Assembly (NCBI GenBank): GCA_963674695.2
Contig: CAXXGI010000001.1
Coordinates: 928,001-992,000, forward strand
DNA: 64,000 nt
Source of the DNA: a bacterium
GTDB taxonomy: Bacteria > UBA10199 > 2-02-FULL-44-16 > JAAZCA01
Direction of reading: 5' to 3'
Numbering within the stretch: the stretch's first letter is position 1; every line of letters starts with the position of its first letter. Positions 14,858 through 61,663 of this stretch are shown one piece after another. The translations under genes were made by a program, and so were the position numbers. A model generated the notes under the pieces. The model was not told the origin of the DNA. It saw nothing but the letters and a program-made list of their open reading frames with translations, and did not search any database.

Positions 14858-15793
14858 ATGATCCACGTCGAACACCTGCACAAGCACTTCGGACCGGTTC
14901 AGGCCGTGAGCGATGTCTCCTTCGATGTCGCCAAAGGTGAGGTCGTGGGCCTTCTGGGCCCCAACGGCGCGGGCAAGACGACCACGATGCGCGTCATCAC
15001 CGGCTTCCTGCGCTCCAGCGCGGGGCTGGTCACCGTGGATGGCATTCCGGTCTCGCCCGAAGAGATTCGCACGCGTCGGCTCATCGGCTATCTCCCTGAA
15101 AATGCACCCCTGCCGACCGATCTGGAGGTCACGGGGTTTCTCGACTACATCGCGCACCTGCGGGGCATCGCCACGACGGCCATCCCTGGCGCGATCGACG
15201 AGATGATCGACACCTGCGGCCTGGCCACGGTGGTGGGTCGCCCGATCGGCCAGCTCTCGAAGGGATATCGGCAGCGCGTGGGACTCGCCGCGGCGCTGCT
15301 CCACCGGCCGCCGATCCTCATCCTCGATGAACCGACCTCCGGCCTCGACCCGAATCAGATCACCGAGATCCGCACGCTGATTCGAGCCATCGGACAGGAG
15401 CGGACGGTCGTGCTCTCCACGCACATCCTGCAGGAGGTCGAAGCGACCTGCTCGCGCGCGCTGATCATCAGCAGCGGAAAACTCGTCGGCCACGGCACGC
15501 TCTCAGAACTGATGCGCGCATCCGGCGGGCACGCGCGCTATACCGTCGCCCTGCGCGCCGCGCGCGAGGTGATTCGCACGGCACTCGAAGCGCTGCCCCA
15601 TCTGGAGATCGCCGAATGGCTCTCGGGACCAACCGATGAACGCCAGCGCTTTACCCTGGCGGGACAGGATCCCGAGGATCGCTCCGAGGAGATCTTTGGC
15701 TGGGCCGTGGCGCAAAATTTAACGCTCGCGGAACTGACCCACGAGACGGCCTCGCTCGAAGAGGTTTTTCGGGAGTTGACGCAAACCCCGTGA
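14858..15793 (+). CDS. ABC ATP-binding protein (GldA-like)
   Basis: GPNGAGKTTTMR, LSKGYRQRVG, LDEPTSGLDPNQI, STHILQEV. Confidence 0.9.
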   Translation: MIHVEHLHKHFGPVQAVSDVSFDVAKGEVVGLLGPNGAGKTTTMRVITGFLRSSAGLVTVDGIPVSPEEIRTRRLIGYLPENAPLPTDLEVTGFLDYIAHLRGIATTAIPGAIDEMIDTCGLATVVGRPIGQLSKGYRQRVGLAAALLHRPPILILDEPTSGLDPNQITEIRTLIRAIGQERTVVLSTHILQEVEATCSRALIISSGKLVGHGTLSELMRASGGHARYTVALRAAREVIRTALEALPHLEIAEWLSGPTDERQRFTLAGQDPEDRSEEIFGWAVAQNLTLAELTHETASLEEVFRELTQTP

Positions 15794-15866
15794 ACGGTAA
15801 ACCGTGAACGGTGAACAGAAAATCGTTCACGGTTCACCGTTCACCGTTTACGGTTAACGGTTCACG
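15790..15866. repeat. Inverted heptamer arrays (GTGAACN)n / (GTTCACN)n
   Basis: About 4 GTGAAC-type units overlapping the stop codon, then about 6 GTTCAC-type units ending just before ATG 15870. Confidence 0.85.
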
Positions 15867-15869
15867 ATT

Positions 15870-16586
15870 ATGAAAAACATCTGGACGATTACCAAGCGAG
15901 AGTTCACGGCGTATTTCGTCAGCCCGATCGCCTACGTCTATCTCATCACCTTTCTCGTCGTCACCAACTGGCTCTTCTTCCGCACCTTCTTCGTCCTGGG
16001 GCAAGCGGACATGCGCCTCTTCTTCGGCCTCATCCCCTGGATCTTTCTCTTCTTCGTTCCAGCGGTGGCCATGGGCAAGTGGGCCGAGGAGCGCAAGCTC
16101 GGAACGCTCGAGGTCCTGTTCACGCTCCCGGTCTGCCTCCTCGATATCATCCTCGGAAAATTCTTGGCGGGACTCGGCCTTATCGCGACCGCGCTCCTGC
16201 TCACGCTCCCGATGGCGCTCACGATCGCAGGGCTCGGCGATCTGGACTGGGGCCCGGTCATCGGCGGCTACATCGGCTCGCTCTTCCTGGGCGGCGCCTA
16301 CCTCGCGGTGGGACTGACCATCTCATCGCTCACCGAAAATCAGATCATCGCCTTCATCCTGGGAGTGGCGGCGAGCTTCGGCCTGCTCATCATCGGCACG
16401 CCGATGATCGCCGGCGGCAGCTCCGGACCGATCGCCCAGGTCCTCCAATACATGGGCCTGGAGATGCACTTCACCTCGATCGCTCGGGGCGTGATCGATA
16501 GCCGTGATCTCATCTATTATAGTTCGGTCATCGGTTTCTTTCTCTATGTGAACCGCAAACTCCTGGAGACGTTTGCCCGACGATAG
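15870..16586 (+). CDS. ABC permease (GldF-like)
   Basis: KREFTAYFVSPIAY, WAEERKLGTLEVLFTLP, SSLTENQIIAF, RGVIDSRD. Confidence 0.9.
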   Translation: MKNIWTITKREFTAYFVSPIAYVYLITFLVVTNWLFFRTFFVLGQADMRLFFGLIPWIFLFFVPAVAMGKWAEERKLGTLEVLFTLPVCLLDIILGKFLAGLGLIATALLLTLPMALTIAGLGDLDWGPVIGGYIGSLFLGGAYLAVGLTISSLTENQIIAFILGVAASFGLLIIGTPMIAGGSSGPIAQVLQYMGLEMHFTSIARGVIDSRDLIYYSSVIGFFLYVNRKLLETFARR

Positions 16587-16596
16587 GCGTGAAACA

Positions 16597-18189
16597 ATGC
16601 CCAAGAAGAACGCGATCATCATGGTCCTGACGGTGCTGCTGCTCCTTGCCACCGTCAACGTCATCGCTGCACGCTTCCCCCTGCGCGCCGACCTGACGGA
16701 AAACCGCACCTATACGCTCGCGCCAGCCACGCACGACATTCTGAAACACTTGGACGACATCGTCTCGATCACCGTCTATTTTACCGAAGAGCTCCCGCCA
16801 CAGCTGACCACGCTCCGGCGAAACGTGGAAGACCTGCTGGCCGAAATCAAACGCGCCTCGAACGCCCGCGTCCGGGTTGCCTTCGTCGATCCGAACAGCT
16901 CCATGCTGGATGAACAAAAGGCCGCGCTTCTGGGTATCCCGCCGATTCAGCTCAACGTCCTCAAACACGATCGCCAGGAGGTGGCCAAGATCTATCTGGG
17001 GATGGCCGTCACCTACGGAGACCAACAACAGGTCCTGCCCGTCGTCCAACGCCTGGAGACACTCGAGTATGATCTGGTCGAAGCGATCCTCAAGGTGACG
17101 ACGAAGGAGATGCCGCCGATCGCCTGGTGGGAGACGCCAACCGACAGCGCGGCCGCCGGGGGATTCAGCCTGATCCGCCAGGCGCTCGAACGCCGTTATA
17201 CCATCGTCCCGCTGAACGCGGAGACGGCGATCGATGCCGATCCGAAGCGTTTTCCCGCGCTGGTGCTCGCCTCACCTCGCACGTTCTCGAATGAAGCGCT
17301 CGTCTGGCTCGACCAATACCTCATGGGCGGCGGCCGCATCATCGCGCTCATCGATCGGTTCGATATCGATGGGCAACTCAACGTGACGCCCGTCGAGACG
17401 AACGTGACGGAGCTCTTGACCCACTACGGCGTGACCGCTGACGACGAACTCGTGCTCGACACTGCAAACGCCATGGCCTCGTTTTCCGGCGGCATTGTCA
17501 CCTATCACATGCCCTATCCGTATTGGCCGGACGTGCAGAAAGCATACCTCAATTCGGACGAGCCGATCGTGGCCGACCTGGAATCGATCGTCCTGCCTTG
17601 GACGAGCCCGCTCACCCTGGCCACGACCGCCGCTGAAACCGGCACGCCCCTGGCCACGACCACCGATCAGGCCATCGCGATCCCCGCACATGAGGCACAG
17701 CTGGATCCACAGGCCGCCGCCGAAGCGATGGCGCAAGGCAAACCGGCAACCGCCGTCTTGTCCGCCCTGCTCGACGGACCGTTTTCGAGCTTCTTTGCCG
17801 ATCGCGACCGCGCGCCCAAAGGGGCGACCCTCATCGGCGAGAGCCCCGCCAGCGCGCGTCTGTTCGTCGTGGGATCATCGCGCTGGGTGAGCGACTCATT
17901 TCTGCAGGTCTTCCCCGCCAACGCCGCCTTCTTCCAGAATGCAGTGGACGCCTTCGCCATGGGCGATGCCCTCATCGGCATCCGTTCGCGCGAGCAGACC
18001 ACGCGACCGATCGCCGCGCTCTCTGAAACAGGCATCGCTTTCTTCCGGTGGACGAACCTCCTCATCGGCCCGATCATCGTGTTGGTCATTGCCCTGGTCG
18101 TCTTTCTGATGCGACGTGCACGATCGAGGTCGATCCAAAGACGCATCGGCTCACGCCGCGAACAGAGAAAAGCGAGTCCACCCGCATGA
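16597..18189 (+). CDS. GldG-family ABC auxiliary component
   Basis: RADLTENRTYTL, LEYDL, LDQYLMGGG, LIGIRSR; N- and C-terminal TMs. Confidence 0.85.
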   Translation: MPKKNAIIMVLTVLLLLATVNVIAARFPLRADLTENRTYTLAPATHDILKHLDDIVSITVYFTEELPPQLTTLRRNVEDLLAEIKRASNARVRVAFVDPNSSMLDEQKAALLGIPPIQLNVLKHDRQEVAKIYLGMAVTYGDQQQVLPVVQRLETLEYDLVEAILKVTTKEMPPIAWWETPTDSAAAGGFSLIRQALERRYTIVPLNAETAIDADPKRFPALVLASPRTFSNEALVWLDQYLMGGGRIIALIDRFDIDGQLNVTPVETNVTELLTHYGVTADDELVLDTANAMASFSGGIVTYHMPYPYWPDVQKAYLNSDEPIVADLESIVLPWTSPLTLATTAAETGTPLATTTDQAIAIPAHEAQLDPQAAAEAMAQGKPATAVLSALLDGPFSSFFADRDRAPKGATLIGESPASARLFVVGSSRWVSDSFLQVFPANAAFFQNAVDAFAMGDALIGIRSREQTTRPIAALSETGIAFFRWTNLLIGPIIVLVIALVVFLMRRARSRSIQRRIGSRREQRKASPPA

Positions 18190-19181
18190 ACCTATCGACC
18201 AACAAGCCGATCCTCTATTTCAGCGCGGCGCTCCTTCTGCTGGCCATCGTCGTCCTCACCCAGCACACCGACACCTCTCGCGTCGGCGATGAGACCGAGC
18301 ATTATTTCATCGAAGACTACGACAGCGCCGATGTCGTACGCATCGAAGTCGAACAGCTCATCGATAGCATCGAACTGCGCCGCACCGAGAAGGGATGGGA
18401 GGTCTCCGAACGGATGACCCCCATGCGCCGCGCTCTCATCAACAAAGGGGGAGAGTCGTTCCCGAAAGAAAAATGGCATCGCGCAGATCCCTCGCGCGTG
18501 GCCAATGCCCTGGGCTCATTCGGCGGTCTCTCTGAGGGGCTGGTGATCTCCGACGACCCGGATCGGCGCAAAATCTACCACGTCGGCCAGACGGGACTTG
18601 CCATACGCCTCTACGACGAAGGGGACAGCGTCATCGCCGATCTCGTCATCGGAAAAAACGCGCCCGATTTTACCTCGAGCTATATCCGCCGCAGCGATGA
18701 AAACGAGGTCCATCGCGTGCGACGACCGCTGATGGGGGCCTTCTCCCCCAGTGCGGAGGATTGGCGCGAACGCCGCCTGTGGACGCTGGAACCGAACACC
18801 ATCACCACGATGACGATCGCCGGCGGAAAGGTAAACAACACTTACGAACAGAACGCAGAGCATCATTGGAGCTGCCGCCGATGTCCGAACGCCACGGTCG
18901 ACCAGGAACACCTGCGCAGCTTTGCCATCAAGCTCGCCTTCTTGCGCGCCGACCAATTTGCCGACGATGTGAGCATCCACAAGGCAGGGCTCGACCATCC
19001 GAGCATGACGGCCACCTTCACCGACAAGAAGGGGGAGACGCGCAAACTGAACATTGGACTGCCTGAGGGTGAATCGTTCTACTATGCCAACGTCGAAGGC
19101 ATCGACGAGATCGTCCTCATCGGCAAGGAAATCGTCGAGCTCGCAAAGGACCTGCCGCGCGAAGCCATCAAACAGAAATGA
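18186..19181 (+). CDS. DUF4340-like protein
   Basis: N-terminal TM, two repeated beta domains (L.IG..., SYIRR, WRERRL, GLDHP); usual position after gldG. Confidence 0.7.
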   Translation: MNLSTNKPILYFSAALLLLAIVVLTQHTDTSRVGDETEHYFIEDYDSADVVRIEVEQLIDSIELRRTEKGWEVSERMTPMRRALINKGGESFPKEKWHRADPSRVANALGSFGGLSEGLVISDDPDRRKIYHVGQTGLAIRLYDEGDSVIADLVIGKNAPDFTSSYIRRSDENEVHRVRRPLMGAFSPSAEDWRERRLWTLEPNTITTMTIAGGKVNNTYEQNAEHHWSCRRCPNATVDQEHLRSFAIKLAFLRADQFADDVSIHKAGLDHPSMTATFTDKKGETRKLNIGLPEGESFYYANVEGIDEIVLIGKEIVELAKDLPREAIKQK

Positions 19182-47363: not shown

Positions 47364-48855
47364 GCTCCCCTGCGGGGACGATCATGCGCACGCGTGTCGC
47401 CAGCGTGCAGAAGGTCTTCGCCGAGGCAAGCGCCGGGCCGAGCCACATCCTCGGAGCGACGCCGACGCCGATGAGGATCGCCAGAGCGGGAATGAGCAGC
47501 ACATATTCGCGCAAACCGAGATCACGCCGATGGCGCGCCTCTTCATCGGACGATCCCGCGATCAATCGCAGAGCGATGCGTCCGACGGCGACCGGCACGA
47601 GCACAACGCCTGCGAGCGCGATGGCCGCCATGATCGTCTGCGTCTGAAAACTCCCGAGGAAGACGAGCCACTCGCCCGCGAAGACGGCAAACCCCGGAAC
47701 GCCCGCCGCCGCGACGAGCAGGACCAGCAGCACCACCGCCATGCGCGGAAGACGCGCACCGAGCTTCGCGCTTCCATCGAGCGCATCGGTCAAACCACGA
47801 CCGGAGAGCATGCCGGCCATACCCAGAAGTCCAACGCTGACGAGCCCCTGCGCGGCCAGCACCACCACCGCCCCCGCGCTCGCCTCCACATTGAGCGACG
47901 AAAACCCGAGCAGAACGATTCCCGTCTGGGCGACGGCCAGATACGCGACCGCACGCTTGAGCGTGGGCTGCACCGCAGCCATGAGCGCACCGGCGATGAT
48001 TCCGACGAGTGCGAGAATGCAGAGCACGGGTACGGCAACCGCGAGCGCCTCAGGGAACAGCGGCATCGCAAAGCGATAGAATCCGTAACAGCCCATCTTG
48101 AGCAGGCCCCCGACGATCAGGATCGCCCCGGCGGTGGGCGCCTCGGCCACCGCATCCGCGAGCCACATATGCAGGCCCACGACGGCAGCGGGGATGGCAA
48201 ACGCGACCGCCATGGCCAGGAAGAGCCAGCGCTGCACCGCGAAGGGGAAATCGATCGCGTACCAATCGAGCAGGTCGAACGAGCCCACCACGCCCGCGGC
48301 CGCGAGCATCGCCACGAGGAGCAGCATGCCGCCCGCCATCACGAAGAGCAGGAAGGTATGCGCCGCGCGCAGGCGCCCGGAGAGCCCGAAGCTGCCGACC
48401 AGGAAGAAGAGAGCGATGAGCACCACCTGCCAACTGACATAGAAGAGAAAGATGTCGAGCGCGGCGAAGACGCCCATGAACCCGGCTTCCGCCACGAACA
48501 GCCAGACATGAAATCCGCGCACGCGTTCATCGACTTCATTCCAGGAGACGAGCACGCCCATGGGCACGATGAGCGCGATCATCAGCATCAGGAGCATCGA
48601 GGCGCCATCGACGCCGACGTGATAGTGGATGCCGAAGGCGGGGATCCAGGAGGCAATCTCACCGAGTTCGAACTCGCGCGAACCCTCGATGCCAAACCAG
48701 GCCAGCGCACAGAGCGCGAGCGTGACGAGCGCCACGACGAGCCCCACCGCGCGCACCGCCCCCTTCCACCGCGCCGGCACGAGCAGGATGAGCGCCGCAC
48801 CGAGAAGCGGCAGAAAGATGATCGCGGTCAGCATGTGGGAAAGCAGCAGTTGCAT
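47353..48855 (-). CDS. nuoM: NuoM-like antiporter subunit (divergent)
   Basis: WIPAFGIHYHVGVDG, LHMWLADAVAEAPTAG, LLKMGCYG, FAGEW, DLGLRE. Confidence 0.88.
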   Translation of the reverse strand: MQLLLSHMLTAIIFLPLLGAALILLVPARWKGAVRAVGLVVALVTLALCALAWFGIEGSREFELGEIASWIPAFGIHYHVGVDGASMLLMLMIALIVPMGVLVSWNEVDERVRGFHVWLFVAEAGFMGVFAALDIFLFYVSWQVVLIALFFLVGSFGLSGRLRAAHTFLLFVMAGGMLLLVAMLAAAGVVGSFDLLDWYAIDFPFAVQRWLFLAMAVAFAIPAAVVGLHMWLADAVAEAPTAGAILIVGGLLKMGCYGFYRFAMPLFPEALAVAVPVLCILALVGIIAGALMAAVQPTLKRAVAYLAVAQTGIVLLGFSSLNVEASAGAVVVLAAQGLVSVGLLGMAGMLSGRGLTDALDGSAKLGARLPRMAVVLLVLLVAAAGVPGFAVFAGEWLVFLGSFQTQTIMAAIALAGVVLVPVAVGRIALRLIAGSSDEEARHRRDLGLREYVLLIPALAILIGVGVAPRMWLGPALASAKTFCTLATRVRMIVPAGEREP

Positions 48856-48861
48856 AATTTC

Positions 48862-48935
48862 CGTGACTCGTGACTCGTGACTCGTAACTCGTAACTCGTA
48901 ACTCGTGAACCGTAATTCGTGACTCGTGAACCGTA
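48862..48935. repeat. Heptamer array upstream of nuoM
   Basis: Mixed GAGTCAC/GAGTTAC/GGTTCAC units on the coding strand ending just before ATG 48855; a half-REP (48945-48980) and a further palindrome (49036-49091) lie next to it. Confidence 0.8.
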
Positions 48936-49143
48936 AGCAATCCGGGACTGGATCCCCGACTACACCACTCGGGGATGACATCGCGTAAAAACCAGCCTCC
49001 GTGATCCGTTCGATCGAAGATCGTGTCGCCGCGAGGGAACACGCGAGGCCATTTTTACAGCTTCATCGGAAAAATGGTCTCGCGTTTTCCCGGAAGGCGC
49101 CAAGCAACTTCGCGCCGCGAGATGAAACTCCGGACTTTCCCCC

Positions 49144-51132
49144 TCACCCCAGCACCAACACCCCGACGACGACGACGGCGCCGATGAGGACATAGAGCAG
49201 ATACTGTCGCACGGCACCGGTCTGTGCAGCGGCCGCGACCGACGCGAAGAAACCGATCGCGCGCGCGCTGCCCCCGATGAGAATACCGGACAGAAACGTG
49301 CGGTCGATCAATTTCCACAAGATCACGCGCGCGACCCACCCGATGGGGCGCACCACGAGCGTCTGCGCTATTTCTTCGAGATACCAGCCCGAGCGCGCGC
49401 TGTGATAGAGCGGCGCGATGCGCCGGAGCAGACGCTCCGACCAATCGCGGCGCTGCGCATAGATGAGCCAACCCAGGATCGAACAGTGCACCGTCCAGAG
49501 GACGGCGATGACATAGAGGATGATCTGCACCGCGCGCGAGACATTATTCATGCCGCGGCTGACCTCGCCCGGCAGGAGTTCGCCCAGCCAGACGCCGAAC
49601 CGATCGGCGCCGCCCAGGATTTCGGGGACGGCGAGCACCCCGCCGAAGAGACAGGCGGTGGCCAGCAGCATCAGCGGCACCACCATCGCCACGGGCGATT
49701 CGGTCACGCGTTTGAAACGATCGAGTTCGATCTCGGTGCGACCGAAGAAGATCGCTCCCGCCACGCGAAAGATCGCAAAGGCGATCATCCCCATGGCCGC
49801 GAAGGTCATGATCCAGATGAGGACCTCGCCGCGCGCATAGGCATGGATGAGAATAGCGGAGAGCCCCGCAAATCCCGCCAGGGGAACCACGCCCGCGAGC
49901 GTAGCCGCAGCGATGACGAAGGTCCAGGCCGTGATCGGCATGCGCTGACCCAGGCCGCCCATGCCGAAGAGATCGCTCTCGCCCTGCAGGGCACGCATCG
50001 CACCGGCGGCGGCGAGCATGCAGAGCAGGAGTGCAAGCGCGACGACCACGAGATGATAGACGGCGGTGGTAAAGACCCCCAACCCCGCCGCGATGAGGAC
50101 GATGCCGAGCTCGGCGGCGGCGATCTGCGCAAGGATGCGTCGCACATCGGTCGACGCCAGCGCCGTGGCGCCCGCCGCGAGTGCGGTGATTCCGCCGAGC
50201 AACGCCATCGCCTTGAGGACACTCGGCGCGAGCGCGAAGATGCCATCCATGCGCGCAACGAGGGCGACCGCCGTAGCGCCGATGACCACCGCCTGCAGAA
50301 AGGCCGCGACCGGAACGGGCGAACGCGTCGTCGAGGGAAGCCAGAACAAAAACGGCACCTGTGCGGAACGCACCGCCACCGCCACGAGCAGCAGCAACGC
50401 GATGACGTGCGCAACCGGCAAAAACGCGGCCTGATACTGCACTACGTTTTCGAACGCGAGCGCGCCATCGCCGGGAGGAACATCGGCCGCCGCCATCGCC
50501 CCGACGATGAGAAAGCAGGCGGCCATGAGCGCCGCATCGCCAATGCGATCGACGACGAAGACCACGACTCCATGCTGCGCACCGTCGCGATCGGAGGAGA
50601 CGAATCCCGCCGTCAGCGATGCACACAACCCCACGCCCATCCATCCGACGATGAAGAACAGAAGGTTCTCCGCCAGCACCGCCATGAGCGCGAAGAAGAG
50701 CATCGCATGGATGAGAGAAGCGGCGCGCGCCAAGGAGCGCCGCCCCTCCATCGCGCCGGGCAGCGCCATCTGCGCAAAGAGGGCCGCGATGCTGAGCGTC
50801 AACCCGAGCGTGAGCGAGAGCTGATCGAGACGCAGACCCACGTCGACCACGAAATCCTTTGAGGCGATCCAGGTGAAGAGCGGTCCGGTGATCGCCGCAG
50901 CAGAGCCGACCTCGAATCCCATGAGCGTCCAAAACAGGACGATCATGATGGCGACGGTGAGCAGGGCACCGACGACGCCGATGAAGACGCTCAGCGGCCG
51001 AAATCGTTCATGCTCGGCGCGTGCGCCCGCCATCGCGATGAACGCGCAGCATGCCGACGACGTCAGCGGAACGGCCAGGACGCACCAGATGAGTGTCTGC
51101 AGTGAAACGATCTGATAGAGCGATTCGAGCAT
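49144..51132 (-). CDS. nuoL: NuoL-like antiporter subunit (divergent, full length)
   Basis: GLRLDQLS, GWMGVGLC, RIGD, SAQVP..WLP, MGGLGQRMPIT, ESP..MVVPL, QTGAVRQY. Confidence 0.88.
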   Translation of the reverse strand: MLESLYQIVSLQTLIWCVLAVPLTSSACCAFIAMAGARAEHERFRPLSVFIGVVGALLTVAIMIVLFWTLMGFEVGSAAAITGPLFTWIASKDFVVDVGLRLDQLSLTLGLTLSIAALFAQMALPGAMEGRRSLARAASLIHAMLFFALMAVLAENLLFFIVGWMGVGLCASLTAGFVSSDRDGAQHGVVVFVVDRIGDAALMAACFLIVGAMAAADVPPGDGALAFENVVQYQAAFLPVAHVIALLLLVAVAVRSAQVPFLFWLPSTTRSPVPVAAFLQAVVIGATAVALVARMDGIFALAPSVLKAMALLGGITALAAGATALASTDVRRILAQIAAAELGIVLIAAGLGVFTTAVYHLVVVALALLLCMLAAAGAMRALQGESDLFGMGGLGQRMPITAWTFVIAAATLAGVVPLAGFAGLSAILIHAYARGEVLIWIMTFAAMGMIAFAIFRVAGAIFFGRTEIELDRFKRVTESPVAMVVPLMLLATACLFGGVLAVPEILGGADRFGVWLGELLPGEVSRGMNNVSRAVQIILYVIAVLWTVHCSILGWLIYAQRRDWSERLLRRIAPLYHSARSGWYLEEIAQTLVVRPIGWVARVILWKLIDRTFLSGILIGGSARAIGFFASVAAAAQTGAVRQYLLYVLIGAVVVVGVLVLG

Positions 51133-51133
51133 G

Positions 51134-51439
51134 CTATCCCTTCAAGAGCGAAAGGTCATCCACATCGCGCCCGGCGTCTTTGCGCTCGAGCGCACGGGCG
51201 AGTCCAAAGCCGACGATCACCTGCAGGACCATGATGACGAAAAGGGTGAGCACGAGCACCCGGCCCGCCAACGCAAGATTCCAGCGGGAGAAGGTCACGA
51301 CCGCCACCACCGCCGCCAGGAGCATGAGCTGTGCCGACAAGAGGATCGCCACGAGATTTCGGCGTACGATCATGCCGAATGCCCCCAACACAAAGAGCAA
51401 CGCACTCGCGGCGAATGCCGGATGCAACGCGGGAATCAT
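51134..51439 (-). CDS. nuoK: NuoK-like subunit (divergent)
   Basis: 101 aa, LLFVLGAFGMIVRRNL...DVDDLSLLKG, three TMs. Confidence 0.88.
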   Translation of the reverse strand: MIPALHPAFAASALLFVLGAFGMIVRRNLVAILLSAQLMLLAAVVAVVTFSRWNLALAGRVLVLTLFVIMVLQVIVGFGLARALERKDAGRDVDDLSLLKG

Positions 51440-51933
51440 CGAACCTCCCGGGTCATGACGACGGCGCTGATGAGCGCAAAGAGCGCGGCCAGCACCGACA
51501 GTTCCATGAAGGCCGAATCCAAAAACGTCGCAGCCAGGAGCGGCATGCCCTGAAACCCGCGCGGAAGCGGCGGCATCATCCCGGCCGATGGCGGCACGAA
51601 TGCCACGAGGATGAGCACCCCCAGATACGCGACCGCGATCACTCCGAGGACCGTGCCGAATCGAACGGACCGGCGCGAACACCGCTGCGCCTCCTGCGCC
51701 GAACCGTTTAGCGCGGCCGCGAAGATGGTCGCCCCACCGATGGCGACGAGCATGCAGGCGAGTGCGGCCATGCCATCGGCGAGCAGCGCCACGAGCCCCG
51801 CCGCCGCGATGAACGTCACCGCAAACCAACGCGCCCCGTCACGCAGCTCGCTGCGTGTCACCGCGGCAAAGGCCGCAACGACGACGATGGTCGCACAGAC
51901 GACGACAGCGATCCCCTCGACGATCGACGGCAC
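51436..51933 (-). CDS. nuoJ: NuoJ-like subunit (divergent)
   Basis: Five TMs, C-terminal ELSVLAALFALISAVVMTRE; ATGA overlap with nuoK. Confidence 0.75.
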   Translation of the reverse strand: MPSIVEGIAVVVCATIVVVAAFAAVTRSELRDGARWFAVTFIAAAGLVALLADGMAALACMLVAIGGATIFAAALNGSAQEAQRCSRRSVRFGTVLGVIAVAYLGVLILVAFVPPSAGMMPPLPRGFQGMPLLAATFLDSAFMELSVLAALFALISAVVMTREVR

Positions 51934-51943
51934 ATCCCCTCCT

Positions 51944-52876
51944 TCACCACAAGGTCATGAGGGCCAAGGCAACCCCCGTGACGAACAGGTTGATACATGC
52001 CAACGGCAGAAACCATCGACGCATGCGCTGCCATCTCGCCGATTCGCGCTGCGCATCGAGCCGGCGTTCGATCCAACCGATCGCTGCGCACAACGCCGCC
52101 GTCTTGATGACGAAGACGACGAGCCCGGCCCCCATGCTCCACGTGCCGATGGCCCAATCGAGCAACTGATGTCCTGCCACCGGGGTGGCGATGAGATGGC
52201 GCAGCGCCGCGCCATCCAGCGAGGGAATCGCCCAGCCGCCCAGAAAGAGCGTCGCTCCCCACGCGCCCAACACCACCAGCAACATGCCGTCGGCCATGCG
52301 GCGAAAGAAGACGGCTTCGCAAGCCACGGCGCCGGGCACACTGAATGCCCACAGCTGGGCGGCCCCGAAGAGAAAGAGCACAAACCCGATCGGCTGCACC
52401 ACGATACCCCAGCGGAGGAGATCGGCGCCGCCGACATCGAGCATGGCATGCAACCGCATCGATCCGTGCACCAGGGCAACCGCACCGGCGACGAAGAGCA
52501 GCGCAGCCCCTGCGGAGATCAGGCGCAGACGCTTGGCGGGCATCGTCTCGCCATCATCGGCAAGCGTTTGTGCAAACGCACTCGCCAGGATGAGCGCCAA
52601 AATGATCAGCGCGCTGCTGGGCAGATCGGCCAGCGGCGAGATGAAGGCAATCGCACCAATTGTCGTCGTCGCCATGAACGGCACGAGCCCGAGCGCGGCC
52701 GCCGCCGTCAGAAAGGCGATGACGGGAGCCAGCAGCGAGAACGCGGGAAGATCGCCGCTCGCATGTGCGCCCGCATATCGCGCACGCGTCATCCGACAGA
52801 CAGACCAGACGAGTCCGCTCGACGCCACGAGCAGGACGCCAACGGAAACGATCGCTTGGATGAATGCAGCCAACAT
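51944..52876 (-). CDS. nuoH: NuoH-like subunit lacking the cytoplasmic quinone-site loops
   Basis: LLAPVIAF, LVHGSMRL, WGIVVQPIGFVLF, ATLFLGGW, FVIKT, WFLPLACINLFVT. Confidence 0.8.
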   Translation of the reverse strand: MLAAFIQAIVSVGVLLVASSGLVWSVCRMTRARYAGAHASGDLPAFSLLAPVIAFLTAAAALGLVPFMATTTIGAIAFISPLADLPSSALIILALILASAFAQTLADDGETMPAKRLRLISAGAALLFVAGAVALVHGSMRLHAMLDVGGADLLRWGIVVQPIGFVLFLFGAAQLWAFSVPGAVACEAVFFRRMADGMLLVVLGAWGATLFLGGWAIPSLDGAALRHLIATPVAGHQLLDWAIGTWSMGAGLVVFVIKTAALCAAIGWIERRLDAQRESARWQRMRRWFLPLACINLFVTGVALALMTLW

Positions 52877-52915
52877 CTCACATCCTCAATTCCCTCCCCC
52901 TTGTAAGGGGAGGGT

Positions 52916-53041
52916 CAGACTGCTGACAAAGTCTTCTCGCGCTGTCATTCCCGCGGGGGTAAGCGGGAATCTCGATTATCACAGCACGTCGAGATCCCCG
53001 CTTTCGCGGGGATGACAACGGCAGGGTTTGTCATCAATCTG
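52916..53041. mobile_element. MITE with 15-bp TIRs and GGT target duplication, inserted in another palindromic repeat
   Basis: CAGACTGCTGACAAA ... TTTGTCATCAATCTG, flanked by GGT (52913-52915, 53042-53044); internal REP; host repeat CCCTCCCCCTTGTAAGGGGAGGGT|TAGGGTGGGG. Confidence 0.8.
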
Positions 53042-53093
53042 GGTTAGGGTGGGGTAGATCGGGGACTCATGATCTACCTCCCCCCATCCCCTC

Positions 53094-53939
53094 TTACTGA
53101 ATCCCCCACTTGTCGAGCGTGCCGGGACTGGAATCGTTGACGATGCTATAGGTGACGCCATCTTCCTGCTGGGCCTGTAGCTTCAGAAACTCCTGCGCCG
53201 CCGCCCGGCCCTCGAAGCTCTTCTTGTCCTTCATCAGATCGCGATAGGTCCGCAGCGCTTCCTGGCGATAGGGCTCCGCGCGGATGAGCAGCTCGTCGGG
53301 GGCAATCGCGCTGTTGAACAGCACCCAGCTCCACTTGCGGTGCACAAACCAGACGTCTTCGTTCACGCGCGCCCAGAGGAGTCTGCCCCGACGGTTCCAC
53401 TCCCCCCTCGGTCGCCGTTTGAGAAAGGCCTTGATGCGCGGCAGCACCTTGTCGGGATGTCCGCGCACCTCGCGCAGCAGGGTGTAGAAATCGGCCTCGG
53501 CCGCCCAGGAGCTCTTCGGGAAATCGGAGAGGAGGCGACGATACTGCACACCTGTGTAGGGGATGTAGGTGATGGCGTGCTCATAGGCGAACGATCCCGA
53601 CCCAAAGCGCGCGTTCAACCCCTGCGCCTCGGCCTGCATGCAGGCGGGCGTGCGCGGCGCGCCCTTGGCCCAATAGCACTTCTTCTCCGCGCGTTCGGTG
53701 AGGCCATCCTGCAGCCGATCGAGCAGGCGCCCACAGAGTGCGAGCGCCTCGGGCGTACGCTTTTTCTCCTTCGGGTGCGCCTGCGCCCAGCGACAGATGA
53801 GCTCGGCGGCTTGCTCCGGCTGCGTCTTCATCAGGGCCTTGCCCTGATCCAGCTCGTCGGCCCCCGCCGGCGCCACCCAGAGAAAGGTGCCCACGAGGAG
53901 GCAACACACGATGCGAGCGATATCAGTGATCCGTTTCAT
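53094..53939 (-). CDS. Secreted helical TPR-like protein
   Basis: Signal peptide ending APAGA-DE; YRRLLSDFPKSSWAAEA and FLKRRPRGEW resemble BamD/CpoB-type TPR units; start overlaps the upstream nuoA-like ORF. Confidence 0.75.
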   Translation of the reverse strand: MKRITDIARIVCCLLVGTFLWVAPAGADELDQGKALMKTQPEQAAELICRWAQAHPKEKKRTPEALALCGRLLDRLQDGLTERAEKKCYWAKGAPRTPACMQAEAQGLNARFGSGSFAYEHAITYIPYTGVQYRRLLSDFPKSSWAAEADFYTLLREVRGHPDKVLPRIKAFLKRRPRGEWNRRGRLLWARVNEDVWFVHRKWSWVLFNSAIAPDELLIRAEPYRQEALRTYRDLMKDKKSFEGRAAAQEFLKLQAQQEDGVTYSIVNDSSPGTLDKWGIQ

Positions 53940-54321
53940 CGATTCCCCCTTCTTCAAAGAGATCATCATCCGTGCGGACCGGACGGGCACCGGCCAGGGC
54001 CCGAGGGACACAGCCGATGGCGACGAGCAGCAGCGCGACAAGGCCCGCGATGAGGACGACGTGGAGCAGGGCCGCTATCGCGTTCTCCCCCTCGGACTGC
54101 AGGATGAGCCCCGAGGCCGCTGGAATGAGCGCCAGGGCGATGAGGCCCAGAAACGCCAAACCCGCAGCGCCCAGCACCGCCGCATCTGTGCGCGGCGAGG
54201 GCAGCAGACCCGGAGCGGGCGACGACGACGCCCGCCGACGGCGCATCCGCACAACAAACACCAGGGCGATGAGCGCCGAAATGACCATCCACACGAAATA
54301 CGCCAGACCGTTGGATTCCAT
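53923..54321 (-). CDS. Three-TM protein, probable highly divergent NuoA
   Basis: TM1-long loop-TM2-TM3 topology, size and first position in the operon fit NuoA; the (Y/F)E(C/S)G and FDVE motifs are absent. Confidence 0.5.
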   Translation of the reverse strand: MESNGLAYFVWMVISALIALVFVVRMRRRRASSSPAPGLLPSPRTDAAVLGAAGLAFLGLIALALIPAASGLILQSEGENAIAALLHVVLIAGLVALLLVAIGCVPRALAGARPVRTDDDLFEEGGIDETDH

Positions 54322-54358: not shown

Positions 54359-54387
54359 AGTGTACCAGGCACGGCCCGCCATGACAA
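54359..54387 (-). promoter_or_regulatory. Sigma70-type promoter for the nuo-like operon
   Basis: Minus strand TTGTCA-N17-TACACT with a TG extension, about 38 bp before ATG 54321. Confidence 0.6.
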
Positions 54388-54482: not shown

Positions 54483-56834
54483 TTGTTTCGAACGCGCCAC
54501 ACCATAATCGTCCTGGGTTTTGCCCTCTTCGCGATGTTCTTCGGGGCAGGAAATCTCATCTTCCCCCCGGCGCTCGGGCGCCTCTTCGGCGATGGGTTCT
54601 CCTGGGCGGCGATCGGCTTTTTGCTCACGGGCGTGGGCCTCCCGCTCATGGGCGTGATGGCGGTCGCCAAGGCCGAGGGCGGCATCGACCGGATCGCGGC
54701 ACGCCTCGACCCTCGAATCGCCAAGCTCCTCTCCATCATCGTCATGCTCGCGATCGGCCCGTTTCTGGCCATCCCGCGCACAGCGGCCACCACCTTTGAG
54801 CTCGGCATCGCGCCCAACCTCCCCTGGCTGGGACTCGCCCCTTTCTCCGTCATCTACTTCGTCGTGGTCCTCTTCTTCGCCCTCAATCCGCTGTCGGTGG
54901 TCGATCGGATCGGAAAGATCCTCACCCCGCTGCTCTTGGCCGCACTCCTGGCCCTGATCTTCAAGGGACTGGCCCACCCCATCGCCGCACCGATCGCGGG
55001 CGCCACACCCCACCCCTTCGGAACCGGGCTCATCGAGGGGTATCAGACGATGGACCTGATGGGCGCGGTGATCTTCGGCATCATCATCTTGAACGAACTG
55101 CGCAGTAAAGGGGTCTTCGAAAAAAGCCTGCAGATGAAGAGCATCGTGCGCGCGGGGCTCATCTCGGCAGGAGGACTGGCCGTCGTCTACGGGGGGCTGG
55201 TCTACCTCGGCGCCACCACCAGCGCCACCATCGGCGAAATGTCGCGCACCCAGCTGCTGCTCTTCATCGCCCATGAACTCTTCGGCCGCGGCGGCGGCAT
55301 CGTCCTGGGTCTGGCCGTCTCGATGGCCTGCCTGACCACCGCCATCGCGCTCACCGTCGTCTGCGGGGAATACTTCAACAAGCTCTCCTTCGGGCGACTG
55401 AGCTACCGCACCGTCTGTCTCGTCGTAGCGGGCTTGAGTCTCGTCTTCGCCAACTTCGGTCTCGAGCAGATCATTGCGCTGGCCGTGCCGCCGTTGGTGG
55501 CGCTCTATCCCGTCGTGATGGTCCTGGTGATCCTCTCGCTCCTGAGCCCGCGCCTTTCCAACCGCAACCTCTGGCGCGGCGCGGTGGCGGGCGCCTTCGC
55601 CGCGGGGCTTATCAAGGCGATCCACATCGCCCAGATCGGCAACGAGCACGTCGATGCGCTCTTCGATCTGATCCCCTTGACCGACCACGGCCTGGGTTGG
55701 GTCCTGCCGACCGTCGCCCTCGGGTTTGCCGGGTCGCTCATCCGCGAACGCGAGGACGAGCATTTTCGCGTGCTGGTCCTCTGCCCCAGCCAGCTCGAAA
55801 CCCGCGTGGCGATCTATGACGACACCATGCCGGTCTTCGAGTCCCGCGTCCCCCACAACCTGGACCGAGCGATGGATACCTCTGAACGCATTGCGGAGCT
55901 GAACTCGCTCAAGGAACACCTGCGCGATCGCCTCTCGCAGGAACACATCGATCTGTCGACCGTGAATGCCGTGGTCGCGCGCGGAGGATTCGTGCATCCG
56001 CTTCCGGGTGGCGTCTACCGCATCGCCGAACCGATGGTGCGCGATCTGGCCGAACACGCCTGGCGCCACCACCCCTCGAACTGGGGGGCGGCTATCGCCT
56101 TCGAGATTGCCAACGAAAACGATATCGACGCCTATATCGTCGATCCGGTCGTGGTCGACGAGATGGACGAGATCGCGCACCTGCTCGGGCTGCCCGACAT
56201 GCGGCGCTCCTCCATCTTTCACGCCTCCAGCCAGAAGCAAACCGCACGTCGCATCGCCAAGAACCTCTGGAAGAGCTACGACCGCATCAACGTCATCATC
56301 GCCCACCTGGGCGAGGGGACTTCCGTCGGTGCCCACCGCAAGGGGCGCGTGGTCGATGTGAACAACGCCCTCGACGGCGATGGGCCGTTTTCGATGCTCA
56401 ACGCGGGAAGCCTCCCCACCGTCGATGTCGTGCGCCTCTGTTTCGAAGAGGGCGCCAGCCAAGAAGCGGTCCTCGCCCGTATCCGCAGTCATGGGGGACT
56501 GGCCGCCCACTTGGGCACGGCCGATGCGGAGGTGATCTGTGCGCGCGTGGCCTCGGGCGATACCAAGGCCTGCGAAGCGATCGAAGCCATGGCCTATCAG
56601 ACGGCGAAATGGATCGGCGCGATGAGCATCCCGCTCGATGGCCGTGTGGATGGCATCGGCATCACGGGCGACCTCGCCGCCTGCCCGGAGCTCACCCGCG
56701 CTATCCGCAAACGCGTACGTCACCTCGCCCCTGTCTTCATCTTTCCGAACGACTCGGAGACACACGCACTCGTCGGAGGCGTGCTGCGCGCCCTGCGCGG
56801 CGAAGAGGAAGTGCGGGAGTATGAACCGCTGTAA
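54483..56834 (+). CDS. brnQ: BrnQ branched-chain amino acid carrier fused to a butyrate-kinase-like domain
   Basis: GFALFAMFFGAGNLIFPP, IGPFLAIPRTA, EGYQTMD, ACLTTAI; then RGG, IVDPVVVDE, GRVVDVNNALDGDGPFS, LRGEE, all in one frame. Confidence 0.92.
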   Translation: MFRTRHTIIVLGFALFAMFFGAGNLIFPPALGRLFGDGFSWAAIGFLLTGVGLPLMGVMAVAKAEGGIDRIAARLDPRIAKLLSIIVMLAIGPFLAIPRTAATTFELGIAPNLPWLGLAPFSVIYFVVVLFFALNPLSVVDRIGKILTPLLLAALLALIFKGLAHPIAAPIAGATPHPFGTGLIEGYQTMDLMGAVIFGIIILNELRSKGVFEKSLQMKSIVRAGLISAGGLAVVYGGLVYLGATTSATIGEMSRTQLLLFIAHELFGRGGGIVLGLAVSMACLTTAIALTVVCGEYFNKLSFGRLSYRTVCLVVAGLSLVFANFGLEQIIALAVPPLVALYPVVMVLVILSLLSPRLSNRNLWRGAVAGAFAAGLIKAIHIAQIGNEHVDALFDLIPLTDHGLGWVLPTVALGFAGSLIREREDEHFRVLVLCPSQLETRVAIYDDTMPVFESRVPHNLDRAMDTSERIAELNSLKEHLRDRLSQEHIDLSTVNAVVARGGFVHPLPGGVYRIAEPMVRDLAEHAWRHHPSNWGAAIAFEIANENDIDAYIVDPVVVDEMDEIAHLLGLPDMRRSSIFHASSQKQTARRIAKNLWKSYDRINVIIAHLGEGTSVGAHRKGRVVDVNNALDGDGPFSMLNAGSLPTVDVVRLCFEEGASQEAVLARIRSHGGLAAHLGTADAEVICARVASGDTKACEAIEAMAYQTAKWIGAMSIPLDGRVDGIGITGDLAACPELTRAIRKRVRHLAPVFIFPNDSETHALVGGVLRALRGEEEVREYEPL

Positions 56835-56908
56835 ACAGTTCGATGGTCCGACGGTTCGTCGGTTCGTCGGTTACAGCGTTTCAATCCTGTGATAGAGCGT
56901 CAAATTCG

Positions 56909-56988
56909 ATCGAACCATCGAACCATCGAACCATCGAACCATCGAACCATCGAACCATCGAACCATCGAACCATCGAACCATCGAACC
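56909..56988 (+). repeat. Perfect (ATCGAACC)x10 array
   Basis: Ends 1 nt before ATG 56990; degenerate inverted GGTTCG(A/T)N units at 56838-56873. Confidence 0.92.
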
Positions 56989-56989
56989 C

Positions 56990-59900
56990 ATGCACACACT
57001 CGGCATCGACATCGGATCCATCTCGCTCAAACTCGCGCTCATCGACGAGAAGGATGAAGTCTGTTTCAGCCGTTGGCAACGGGTCGCCGGCACGCCGATC
57101 CCGGTGCTGCGCGCGCTGCTTTCCGAACTGATCGCCGAATATCCCGACACCGTCATCGACGCCATCGGCGTGACCGGCAGCGGGCGCGAGCTGATCACAG
57201 CACCGCTCGGTGCCCACTCCGTCAACGAGATCACCGCACAGGCGCGCGCCTGCGCGCTGATCACCCCTGAGGCGCGCACGATCATCGAGATCGGCGGCCA
57301 GGATTCGAAACTCATCATCTTCGAGAATGACGAGAGCCGCGACATCCGCGAGTTCCGCATGAACGAGCTGTGCGCGGCGGGCACCGGCGCTTTTCTCGAT
57401 CAGCAGGCCGCGCGCTTGGGCCTTTCCATCGAGCGCTTTGCGCAACAGGCAGCCGATGCGACCGACCCGGTCCCGATCGCCGGTCGATGCGCGGTCTTTG
57501 CCAAGACCGACATGACCCACCATCAGCAGGAGGGTCGCTCCATCCCGGACATCGTGGCCGGCCTCAACGAAGCGCTCGTGCGCAGCTATCTGGCCGGGCT
57601 TGTGCGCGGTGCCGTACTTCCGCGCCCGATCGCCTTCCAGGGAGGAGTCGCCTCCAACGCCGGACTCGTCTCCGCCTTTCAGCGTCTTCTCGGAATCACC
57701 TCCGAGGAATTCATCGTCCCGGCGACCCATCGCGTTATGGGCGCCATCGGCGCCGCACACCTCGCTTCGGAGCAGACCATCGACCGAAAGACCACCCCCG
57801 AAAACATATTGCTCGTCGTCGAGGGGATCGAGGAGGGCGAACCCACGGAATCGATCGGCAGACCCATGGAGCCCCTGGTTCCCCTCGCACCACAGCCCAT
57901 CGCACCAGATTTTTCCCCCCTCGACCTGGATGGGGCCTACCTGGGAATCGACATCGGATCGGTCTCGGTCAAATTCGTCGTCATCGACCGCACGGGCGTG
58001 CGGCACAGCGACTATCGTTTCTCCGATGGGCGCCCCTTTGAAACGCTCAGGCCCATGCTCACGGAACTCGCTGAACGCCGCGCGGGACACCCCTTTTCCG
58101 GCGTCGGCATCACCGGCAGCGGCCGCGAATTCATCGGACGACTCATCGGTGCCGATGTCATTCAGAACGAGATCACCGCGCAGGCAGCAGCAGCGGCATT
58201 CCTCTTGCCGAACGTGGACACGGTCGTCGAGATCGGCGGACAGGATGCAAAGTTCATGCGATTGACGGGCGATCGCGCCGCACACTTCGCGATGAATCGC
58301 GTCTGCGCTGCCGGCACGGGCGCCTTTCTGCAAGAACAGGCCGCACGTCTGGGAATCGACCTGAAGCAAGATTTTGCACGCGAAGCGTTCGCAAGTTCTG
58401 CACCCGCTACGCTTGGCGAACGCTGTACCGTCTTCATGGAATCGGATCTGGTCTCCCATCAACAACGCGGTGCCAACAAGCGCGACTTAATCGCAGGGCT
58501 CGCCCTGAGCGTGGTGCAAAACTATCTCGATAAAGTTGTTTCCGGTCATCCCTGCGGAGAACGCATCCTCTTTCTCGGCGGAGTGGCGGAAAACCGCGCG
58601 GTTGCTGCCGCCCTTGAGCGCATGATCGGAAAGACGGTCACCACCTCAACCCTGGGAACGATTTCGGGCGCCATCGGTGCAGCGCTCGCGGCATTTCATG
58701 CACGGCGCGCCGAAGCATTCTCCGAGAGCCGCTTTCGCTTTGACGCGCTGGCCGTCGAGATCGAAACCTTCACCTGCGAGGAATGCCCAAACCGCTGTCG
58801 CATCATGCGCATTCGGGGCGGGCGCGATGAGACCATGGGCGGACGCTGTGGGCGATGGGATGCCTCGGCCGCACCGAAGACGACGCCGGGATTCAACGGC
58901 GTCATCGAACGGTGGAAGGTGATGGAACAGAATCCGTCACACGTGACCCGTGATCGACAAACGCCAGCCGTTCCGTCCACGGTTCACCGTTCACGGTTCA
59001 CGAAGATCGGCATTCCCCGCGCGCTGCTCGCCTTCGACCTTCTGCCCGCCTGGCGCAGCTTCTTCGAAGCACTCGGGTGCGAGATCGTCCTCTCGCCGCC
59101 AACGGATGCCAAACTCCTGGCCGACGGGATGCGCTCTCTCGTCGTGGAGACCTGCCTCCCCATGAAAGCGTTCTGCGCGCACGTCGACTGGCTCGATCGC
59201 AACGGCGACATCGATTTCCTCTTCGCTCCTTCGATCATCATCACCGAACGCGACCGACATGGACGACACACCACCCATTGCCCGTACATCTTCTCGCTTC
59301 CGCAGTTCGCCCAATCCGCCTGTCATGTGCCGATGCTCAAGCCGGCGATCAATTGGATGCACCATCCGCGCGATGAAGTGCTCGCGATGGAAGATGTTGC
59401 ACGAACGCTCGGCCGCTCTCGTCAGGAGGGTCGGTGCGCATGGGAGAAGGCCTGTGCCGTACAGGAGGAAACGCGCGCGCAGCTTCATCGCATCGGCACG
59501 GAGCAGCTCGCCGCTTTGTGCGCGAAAACAACGGACCGCGCTTTTCTGCTCATCGGAAAGGATTACACCCTCGCCGACGGCGCGCTCTCCTCAGACATCG
59601 CCACGCTCATCGCTGATCGGGGCGAGGTCGTTCTCACACAGGACATGTGCATCGATGATTCGGGCCAATACAGCGCGGCCTATGAATCGATGTACTGGCA
59701 CCATGGCAAGGAGATCCTCGCTGCCGCCGAGCTCTGTGCGCGCACGCCGAATCTCCATCCGGTCATCATCACGAGCTTTGGGTGTGGGCCGGATTCATTC
59801 ACGCTGCGCTTTGTGCGCGACATTCTGAAGAACACGCCGCACCTCGTCCTTGAAGTCGATGAACACAGCTCTGCTGTGGGCATGGCCACGCGCTTCGAGG

Positions 59901-61144: not shown

Positions 61145-61244
61145 ACCGTAAACCGTGAACGGCAAGCATCATTGTGTTAGAGTTCACTGTTCACTGTTCA
61201 CTGTTCACTGTTCACTGTTCACTGTTCACTGTTCACTGTTCACG
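61134..61244. repeat. Inverted heptamer arrays (GTRAACN)n / (GTTCACT)x8-9
   Basis: The left array supplies the TGA stop; the right array 61182-61244 runs into the GGAGG SD of the next gene. Confidence 0.9.
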
Positions 61245-61252
61245 GAGGCATT

Positions 61253-61663
61253 ATGTTCATCCGCTTTCTCCTCTTCGGTATGCTGGGCATCTTCGCCACG
61301 CTCCTCTTCACGGCGGTGGCGGAATCGGTGGCCAAACGAAAATGGGATTTCACGGGACACGCCTCACTCATCCTCTTTCCGCTCTATGGCCTCATCGCCA
61401 TTCTCTATCCGCTCATCGCTTTGCGCCTCGGCGGCGTCCCCTGGTATGTGCGCGGCATCATCTATATGCTCGCCTTCTTCCTCGTTCAGCTCGTTGTCGG
61501 ATGGGCGCTCACGCGCTGGCGGATCTGCCCCTGGAGCTATGCCAAGGGCTGGTCGCTGGCGGGGCTCGTGCGCCTGACCGACGCGCCGATCTGGTTCGTC
61601 GCGGGCCTCATCGTCGAATGGATCTATCCGTTCGTGCAGGGGACTGCCTACAGCCTCTCGTGA
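61253..61663 (+). CDS. Small four-TM membrane protein (putative ABC permease/CmpB-like family)
   Basis: RFLLFG, FPLYG, RGIIY, CPWSY, GLVRL..APIWF pattern; good SD. Confidence 0.7.
   Translation: MFIRFLLFGMLGIFATLLFTAVAESVAKRKWDFTGHASLILFPLYGLIAILYPLIALRLGGVPWYVRGIIYMLAFFLVQLVVGWALTRWRICPWSYAKGWSLAGLVRLTDAPIWFVAGLIVEWIYPFVQGTAYSLS

Follow-up and report, generated by a model that had tools for sequence, protein, structure and literature searches.

Complex I membrane subunits occur without NuoEFG in the 11-subunit headless complex I, Fpo, Mrp and DabAB/MpsAB, systems in which either the B/C/D/I module or the charged axis is preserved, or the partner is cytoplasmic. The accessory subunits known from bacterial complex I sit on the cytoplasmic arm, NuoI-type Fe-S subunits are cytoplasmic and carry CxxCxxCxxxCP cluster motifs, the TPR fold is a protein-binding scaffold, and the CpoB/YbgF gene belongs to the tol-pal cluster. 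According to PMC12361115, few accessory subunits of bacterial complex I are known, among them NDUFA12, NDUFS4 and NDUFS6 in Paracoccus and an A9-like subunit in Mycobacterium smegmatis, and neither "TPR" nor "tetratricopeptide" occurs in its main text. CpoB/YbgF is described as a periplasmic, Sec-exported TPR adaptor in PMC4458516. In the open-access literature, we found no paper on a nuo operon that encodes a secreted TPR protein and no description of a charge-stripped headless nuo operon.

The 64,000-nucleotide stretch of DNA analysed here (the window) carries a nuo operon that differs from all of the NuoEFG-less systems above, with B-G gone, many axis residues lost and a companion gene, gene X, whose product is predicted to be secreted (Table 1). 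Its antiporter-like subunits have their best matches in NuoL/M/N and not in Mrp. No NuoB-G or NuoI was found in the 64-kb window, and the operon lacks both the NuoB/C/D/I set and many of the charged-axis residues of a proton-pumping complex I. None of 18 scored charged or Tyr positions in NuoH matches Escherichia coli, with the cytoplasmic face the most decayed, while NuoL has a lineage-specific N-terminal extension and a periplasmic TM2-3 hairpin, both conserved. The ORF in the nuoA position is probably a degenerate NuoA: its earlier label "nuoA-like" holds for position, size and three hydrophobic segments and fails for sequence recognition, with no NuoA Pfam match, no tblastn match and an hhalign probability of 0.8% against the lineage NuoA profile. 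Gene X lies between this ORF and the NuoH-like ORF, as first read, an arrangement that follows flanking deletions. We found no nuoC-G remnant in the spacer between X and nuoH, which contains a strongly folding palindromic element (z −9.9 for 52890-53093). The element belongs to a REP-like palindromic repeat family that recurs in the window (12 motif matches versus 1.2 expected), mostly in intergenic positions and often as inverted pairs, and intergenic tandem arrays of 7-8-nt units are also present, including in the nuoL/M and nuoM/N intervals.

Table 1. Features of the window and of related loci (L numbers; coordinates within each locus).
Feature	Position	Strand	Remark
Gene X, TPR-like protein, predicted secreted	53094..53939	-	281 aa + stop; translation, model, alignments
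Three-TM ORF in nuoA position	53923..54321	-	132 aa; position, size, hydrophobic segments
Spacer, 217 bp	52877..53093	.	occupies nuoC-G place of intact-type relatives
NuoH, degenerate	51944..52876	-	PF00146 E 2e-7, weak
NuoJ, degenerate	51436..51933	-	
NuoK	51134..51439	-	E36->Q, E72->Q
NuoL, fold kept	49144..51132	-	3/10 scored proton-path residues remain
NuoM	47353..48855	-	E144->Q, K234->P; K265, E407 kept
NuoN	45783..47264	-	K217->R, K247->M, K395->R; E133 kept
Sigma-70-like site TTGTCA-17-TACACT, extended TG	54359..54387	-	operon upstream; consensus match only
REP-like motif	52890-53093; 4379, 4441, 8755, 8837, 12594, 13675, 29043, 29129, 38517		
Tandem arrays	45732-45794, 47259-47377, 48848-48948, 56893-57012, ~61160-61240		
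BrnQ-butyrate kinase fusion	54483-56834	+	783 aa
136-aa membrane protein	61253-61663	+	also L001:1381-1791, L002:1922-2332
243-aa protein	40116-40847	-	also L007:9434-10180 (-)
ABC transporter cluster	14858-19181	+	
nuoH/nuoJ junctions without nuoI	L005:7556-7559, L012:17485-17489, L015:16620-16627, L016:12862-12865		
NuoH with insertion	L005:6291-7556, L008:5774-7042, L012:16172-17485, L016:11615-12862		
Truncated NuoE fused to NuoF	L001:12715-14304, L003:5154-6698		
400-aa ORF between nuoJ and nuoK	L015:17453-18655		

Gene X is confirmed as a real gene. An SD-like purine-rich run precedes its ATG at 53939, the start with which homolog N-termini line up among the in-frame alternatives (53969 and 54041), and the 17-bp overlap with the upstream ORF noted from the sequence is borne out by the stop of that ORF at 53923. 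Upstream of the operon, we observe one sigma-70-like match, versus 0.3 ± 0.7 in shuffled sequences. The X leader (residues 1-27) consists of MKR, a hydrophobic core (11-aa KD 2.8) and A-G-A/D. Scored by a heuristic across the family, a hydrophobic leader is found in 86/91 aligned relatives and Ala at −1 in 65/91, with a lipobox-like motif in 6/91; none of the 91 shows a TM-like segment after the leader. On this heuristic basis, a basic/hydrophobic/AxA leader without a mature TM segment, X is predicted to be exported by Sec. The mature part contains four cysteines (C49, C69, C88 and C100), so that the several Cys of the sequence-only reading are present, but only C88 and C100 are conserved, being invariant (91/91), with C49 in 16/91 and C69 in 34/91 members; the leader and this invariance make a C88-C100 disulfide probable. 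Conservation is highest across residues 179-235, a region that includes the conserved core motif LLWARVNEDxWxxHRKWSWV at 186-206.

An AlphaFold2 model of X is almost all helix (mean pLDDT 94.7, pTM 0.87) and shows the stacked antiparallel helix pairs of a TPR-like alpha-solenoid; model, ORF and heuristic leader thus agree with the initial description of a helical 281-aa protein with a Sec-type leader and mature Cys residues. Structurally, the model lies closest to TPR proteins, among them CpoB/YbgF, YfgM, MamA and BamD, at Z 8-9.6 (rmsd 2.6-4.5, 117-178 aligned residues), which is the generic level for helical repeats; YfgM (8zht_B) gives Z 9.4 at rmsd 4.5 over 155 residues. Foldseek returned no match at E<=0.001. 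The window X has no Pfam match and no meaningful NCBIfam match, a PDB sequence search pointed to no specific family, the ESM Atlas gave only hypothetical or YfiO/TPR clusters (0.93 or less), and no match was found among plasmids and phages. Family members match TPR_14 (29/91) and TPR_6 (29/91; Pfam, E<=0.1). A word-seeded search recovered 94 family proteins, the query among them, at 41-64% identity. Exhaustive searching of 50%-identity representatives gave 20, and a profile search 99. Judged by these searches, the family is small and grades into generic YfiO-like TPR proteins (P0111, P0113, P0115), and X is a TPR-like, CpoB/BamD-clan-like protein of a new family, predicted to be secreted.

Compared with CpoB/YbgF (PDB 2XEV), the X model scores Z 9.0 (rmsd 2.6, 117 residues aligned) with weak HMM matches: nine of nine relatives reach 15.5-45.4 bits against TIGR02795 (CpoB), below its cutoff of 90.1, and the window X has no match to it. 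Unlike CpoB, X has a putatively disulfide-capped insertion, a distinct conserved C-terminal half and no tol-pal context in 17 loci. Like BamD/YfiO (TIGR03302, PF13525), X is a TPR solenoid of similar length, with weak matches in 12/91 members; however, the lipobox-like motif is as rare as stated above, and TIGR03302 scores are 15-29 bits against a cutoff of 81. By analogy, X may work like a CpoB-type periplasmic TPR adaptor.

A GTDB genome scan for X yielded 17 loci, each from a different assembly and with the window extra. From their 210 script-called ORFs, the 109 in or beside the operons were scanned against NCBIfam, with a tblastn cross-check, and the counts below cover these 17 loci, with ~95 metagenomic homologs, P0066, P0100, P0104-P0106, P0111 and P0113-P0115 outside them. 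All 17 loci are complex I (nuo) operons, a count in which operons without X are invisible as every locus was ascertained through X, and X is encoded with nuo genes throughout, as expected of a supernumerary subunit. Homologs in unrelated contexts, which would have counted against the sequence-only reading, are absent from the 17 loci; the immediate neighbours are nuo genes, dtd or unassigned ORFs. X adjoins canonical nuoB and/or nuoC(D) in 14/17 loci and lies exactly between them in 11, with nuoB immediately 5' in 12/17 and nuoC(D) immediately 3' in 13/17. The junctions are tight: the X start overlaps or lies <=4 nt from the nuoB stop in 7/9 loci with a database-matched start, and the X stop is <=10 nt from the following gene in 9/16 loci. 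The contig of L010 ends inside X and that of L008 begins just 5' of it, L004 reads X-C-D-E-F-G without A-B, and the L012 block has no L-M-N. Within the complex I operon, X is therefore an accessory gene specific to this lineage, with its ancestral place between nuoB and nuoC, and this place in relatives indicates that X is older than the loss of the redox arm. Because no nuo gene adjoins X everywhere, its position may be inherited and not partner-driven. BrnQ-butyrate kinase and/or CoA-activase genes, which lie 5' of the window operon, also flank L001, L002, L006 and L009, and this common upstream flank marks the nuo locus of the window as the ancestral one. That X seems to occupy the B-G slot is the result of gene deletions to its left and right.

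We refer to loci as intact-type when neighbouring subunits are canonical, a label on neighbours rather than on whole complexes. Several features of these operons were recorded in passing. All four intact-type operons that span the nuoH-nuoJ interval lack nuoI there, no nuoI match was found in the 17 loci, and the gene may be elsewhere in those genomes. X as a stand-in for nuoI was ruled out, as the Fe-S motif is absent and a leader is present; only two Cys, 12 apart, are conserved. NuoG is short (473-499 aa) in the nuoI-less operons. NuoH has an insertion of ~80-95 aa ahead of its last two helices, apparently adding two TM helices, which is absent in L015 and mostly deleted in the window. A truncated NuoE is fused to NuoF in L001 and L003, followed in L001 by a type I restriction-modification methylase gene in place of nuoG, and the ORF between nuoJ and nuoK in L015 has no NCBIfam match.

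Besides the window, three loci have degenerate operons (L007, A?-X-H?-J?-K-L-M-N; L009, A?-X-decayed D-H-J-K-L-M-N; L014, dtd-X-L-M-N only, with A, H, J and K lost from the locus and upstream neighbours common to intact-type L010-L013). In all four, nuoB-G are gone, save the decayed nuoD of L009, and X is kept. X has thus been retained through deletions on both sides as an operon-embedded, conserved, TPR-like protein. Identity between the X of the window and of L002 is 63% (L001 versus L002, 61%); NuoA identity to L002 is 36-58% in six intact-type loci and 15-23% in degenerate ones, and NuoH identity to L005 is 47-54% and 20-30%, respectively. In P0066, a degenerate NuoA is joined to an X that keeps its leader (PF00507 E 0.007, hhalign 94%); this protein is one database cluster with two members, and could be a frameshift.

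Proton-path residues were scored on E. coli K-12 numbering, at known sites. PMC9271201 and PMC8357420 confirm this list in part. NuoL keeps 3/10 of these residues in the window, L007 and L009 and 4/10 in L014, compared with 9-10 of 10 in six intact-type sequences, and P0120 shows an intermediate state of decay (5/10). A region search for NuoL returned only four relatives. Degenerate operons have lost most of NuoK E36/E72, NuoM E144/K234 and the acidic residues of NuoH, with NuoM K265/E407, NuoN E133 and, in 3/4 degenerate loci, NuoL K399 persisting, although alignments of the most divergent nuo copies are uncertain; given the persisting charges, the degenerate arm may retain residual transport. 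Degenerate NuoL retains more of the intact-intact identity in its periplasmic parts (0.63) than in TM (0.48) or cytoplasmic ones (0.47), within approximate TM helix limits (column bootstrap P 0.0005 or less, weaker per locus: window periplasmic versus cytoplasmic P 0.055, L007 periplasmic versus TM P 0.06), and an earlier run with distant comparators gave the same order. For NuoH, the values are 0.66, 0.56 and 0.27, without a significance test. This pattern could arise because cytoplasmic and TM constraint ends with redox coupling.

With respect to the number of losses, an X tree redone on 18 rows of known context has starred branches that force at least two separate decays, with a marginal p-AU of 0.046 for a single clade. 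In this tree, the L014 X groups with that of intact-type L008 (support 96/94), and the flanking genes of L014 differ, in agreement with separate decay. The NuoL tree, which carries long-branch and composition warnings, joins the window with L009 (98/99) and is compatible with one origin. A first AU test (p 7e-50, 3 changes) was discarded, as some rows of its tree, a near-twin of L009 among them, were of unknown context. Decay of the redox arm probably originated two or more times; deletion of B-G around X and loss of proton-path residues are observed in the window lineage and at least one other.

The reading that we favour, with moderate confidence, is that X serves the membrane arm from the periplasm, as an accessory subunit or assembly factor specific to this lineage, and that the stripped arm survives as its scaffold. 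After Sec export and formation of the C88-C100 disulfide, X would be a TPR adaptor that docks on the periplasmic face and acts as a supernumerary subunit or an assembly/stability factor. The L/M/N module is the most likely docking site, as these are the only subunits kept in 4/4 degenerate operons. Once deletions to either side of X had removed nuoB-G and many proton-path residues had gone, the membrane subunits and X would have stayed under selection as a scaffold without redox-coupled pumping, hinting at a second, non-respiratory job for the leftover arm. Gene context and conservation suggest that X binds the arm physically; a complex prediction of X(28-281) with the window NuoL gave ipSAE 0.00 in two runs with controls not folded, and is neutral as to binding. 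The periplasm-side partner proposed in the sequence-only reading is supported by the nuo context in 17/17 loci, retention in 4/4 degenerate operons, the minimal X-L-M-N operon and the NuoA-X fusion. Like the accessory subunits of Paracoccus and M. smegmatis, X would be a lineage-specific addition to the 14-subunit core with a probable part in its stability or assembly. It has no family match to them and differs in that it carries a predicted signal peptide, is TPR-like and operon-encoded, and outlasts the redox arm.

If this is true, a periplasmic partner that outlives electron transfer and many pumping residues shows a non-respiratory role of the membrane arm, and the series from intact operons to X-L-M-N could help to tell residues that serve pumping from those that serve architecture. 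Both the tie of X to the membrane arm and its persistence once respiration has decayed are unusual, and open to testing. Metabolic reconstructions from genomes would wrongly annotate degenerate nuo operons as respiratory. More tentatively, complex I of this lineage may be an inner-membrane platform from which X reaches envelope machinery, a function that would have outlived respiration more than once with the dead arm as scaffold; the basis for this putative envelope link is the sub-cutoff resemblance to CpoB/BamD TPRs. The dead membrane arm would then be a pseudo-transporter exapted from a respiratory enzyme.

It is possible, at a lower probability than the scaffold reading, that X has an envelope function of its own (CpoB/BamD-like) and is merely co-transcribed, the membrane genes being kept separately, e.g., for uncoupled or secondary ion transport. 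This would fit the weak matches of 19/29 aligned members to TIGR02795 and of 11 to TIGR03302, the way X accompanies one or another piece of the operon where it has split (L004, L012, L014) and a conservation of X that is independent of nuo gene state, but no locus out of 17 lies outside a nuo operon, and the tight junctions with nuoB and nuoC, retention through two-sided deletions and fusion P0066 argue against it. We consider it unlikely that the headless operons are decaying under relaxed selection, with X essential for other reasons and the membrane genes awaiting deletion. Graded states such as the P0120 NuoL, the decayed nuoD of L009 and the loss of A, H, J and K in L014 are what such decay would produce; against this, the membrane genes retain open, almost full-length frames although the branches are very long (terminal NuoL branches of 3.35 changes per column in L007 and 2.45 in L014), the window NuoL model still has the NuoL fold (TM-score 0.73 to 8qby_L), and 28 lineage-specific NuoL positions are common to at least 10/11 sequences. 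Distinctly unlikely, in our view, is a transient periplasmic chaperone that helps the antiporter-like subunits to insert into the membrane or fold, stays outside the finished complex and is still needed by a degenerate arm with a function of its own; the same context evidence and the structural neighbours YfgM (8zht_B) and BamD would suit it, but the E. coli K-12 nuo operon has no such gene and the Z-scores fall within the generic helical-repeat range. Recruitment of X to replace the redox arm in a headless operon, as the sequence-only reading proposed from its place between A and H, is refuted by its position between nuoB and nuoC(D) in the 11 loci with canonical redox-arm genes, and is most improbable also for a predicted periplasmic protein, the redox arm being cytoplasmic.

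The flanks of the window operon show further features. The BrnQ transporter (branched-chain amino acids)-butyrate kinase fusion is also found in L001 and L009, and is followed 3' by a CoA-activase/DUF2229 protein of ~1400 aa and, directly 3' of the activase gene, by the conserved membrane protein of no known family. The 243-aa protein, which has no Pfam match, lies 3' of the degenerate operon in both the window and L007 (63% identical). The ABC transporter cluster, presumably GldA/F/G-like, comprises ABC_transp_aux/DUF7088 and DUF4340 genes followed by an OmpA-domain gene.
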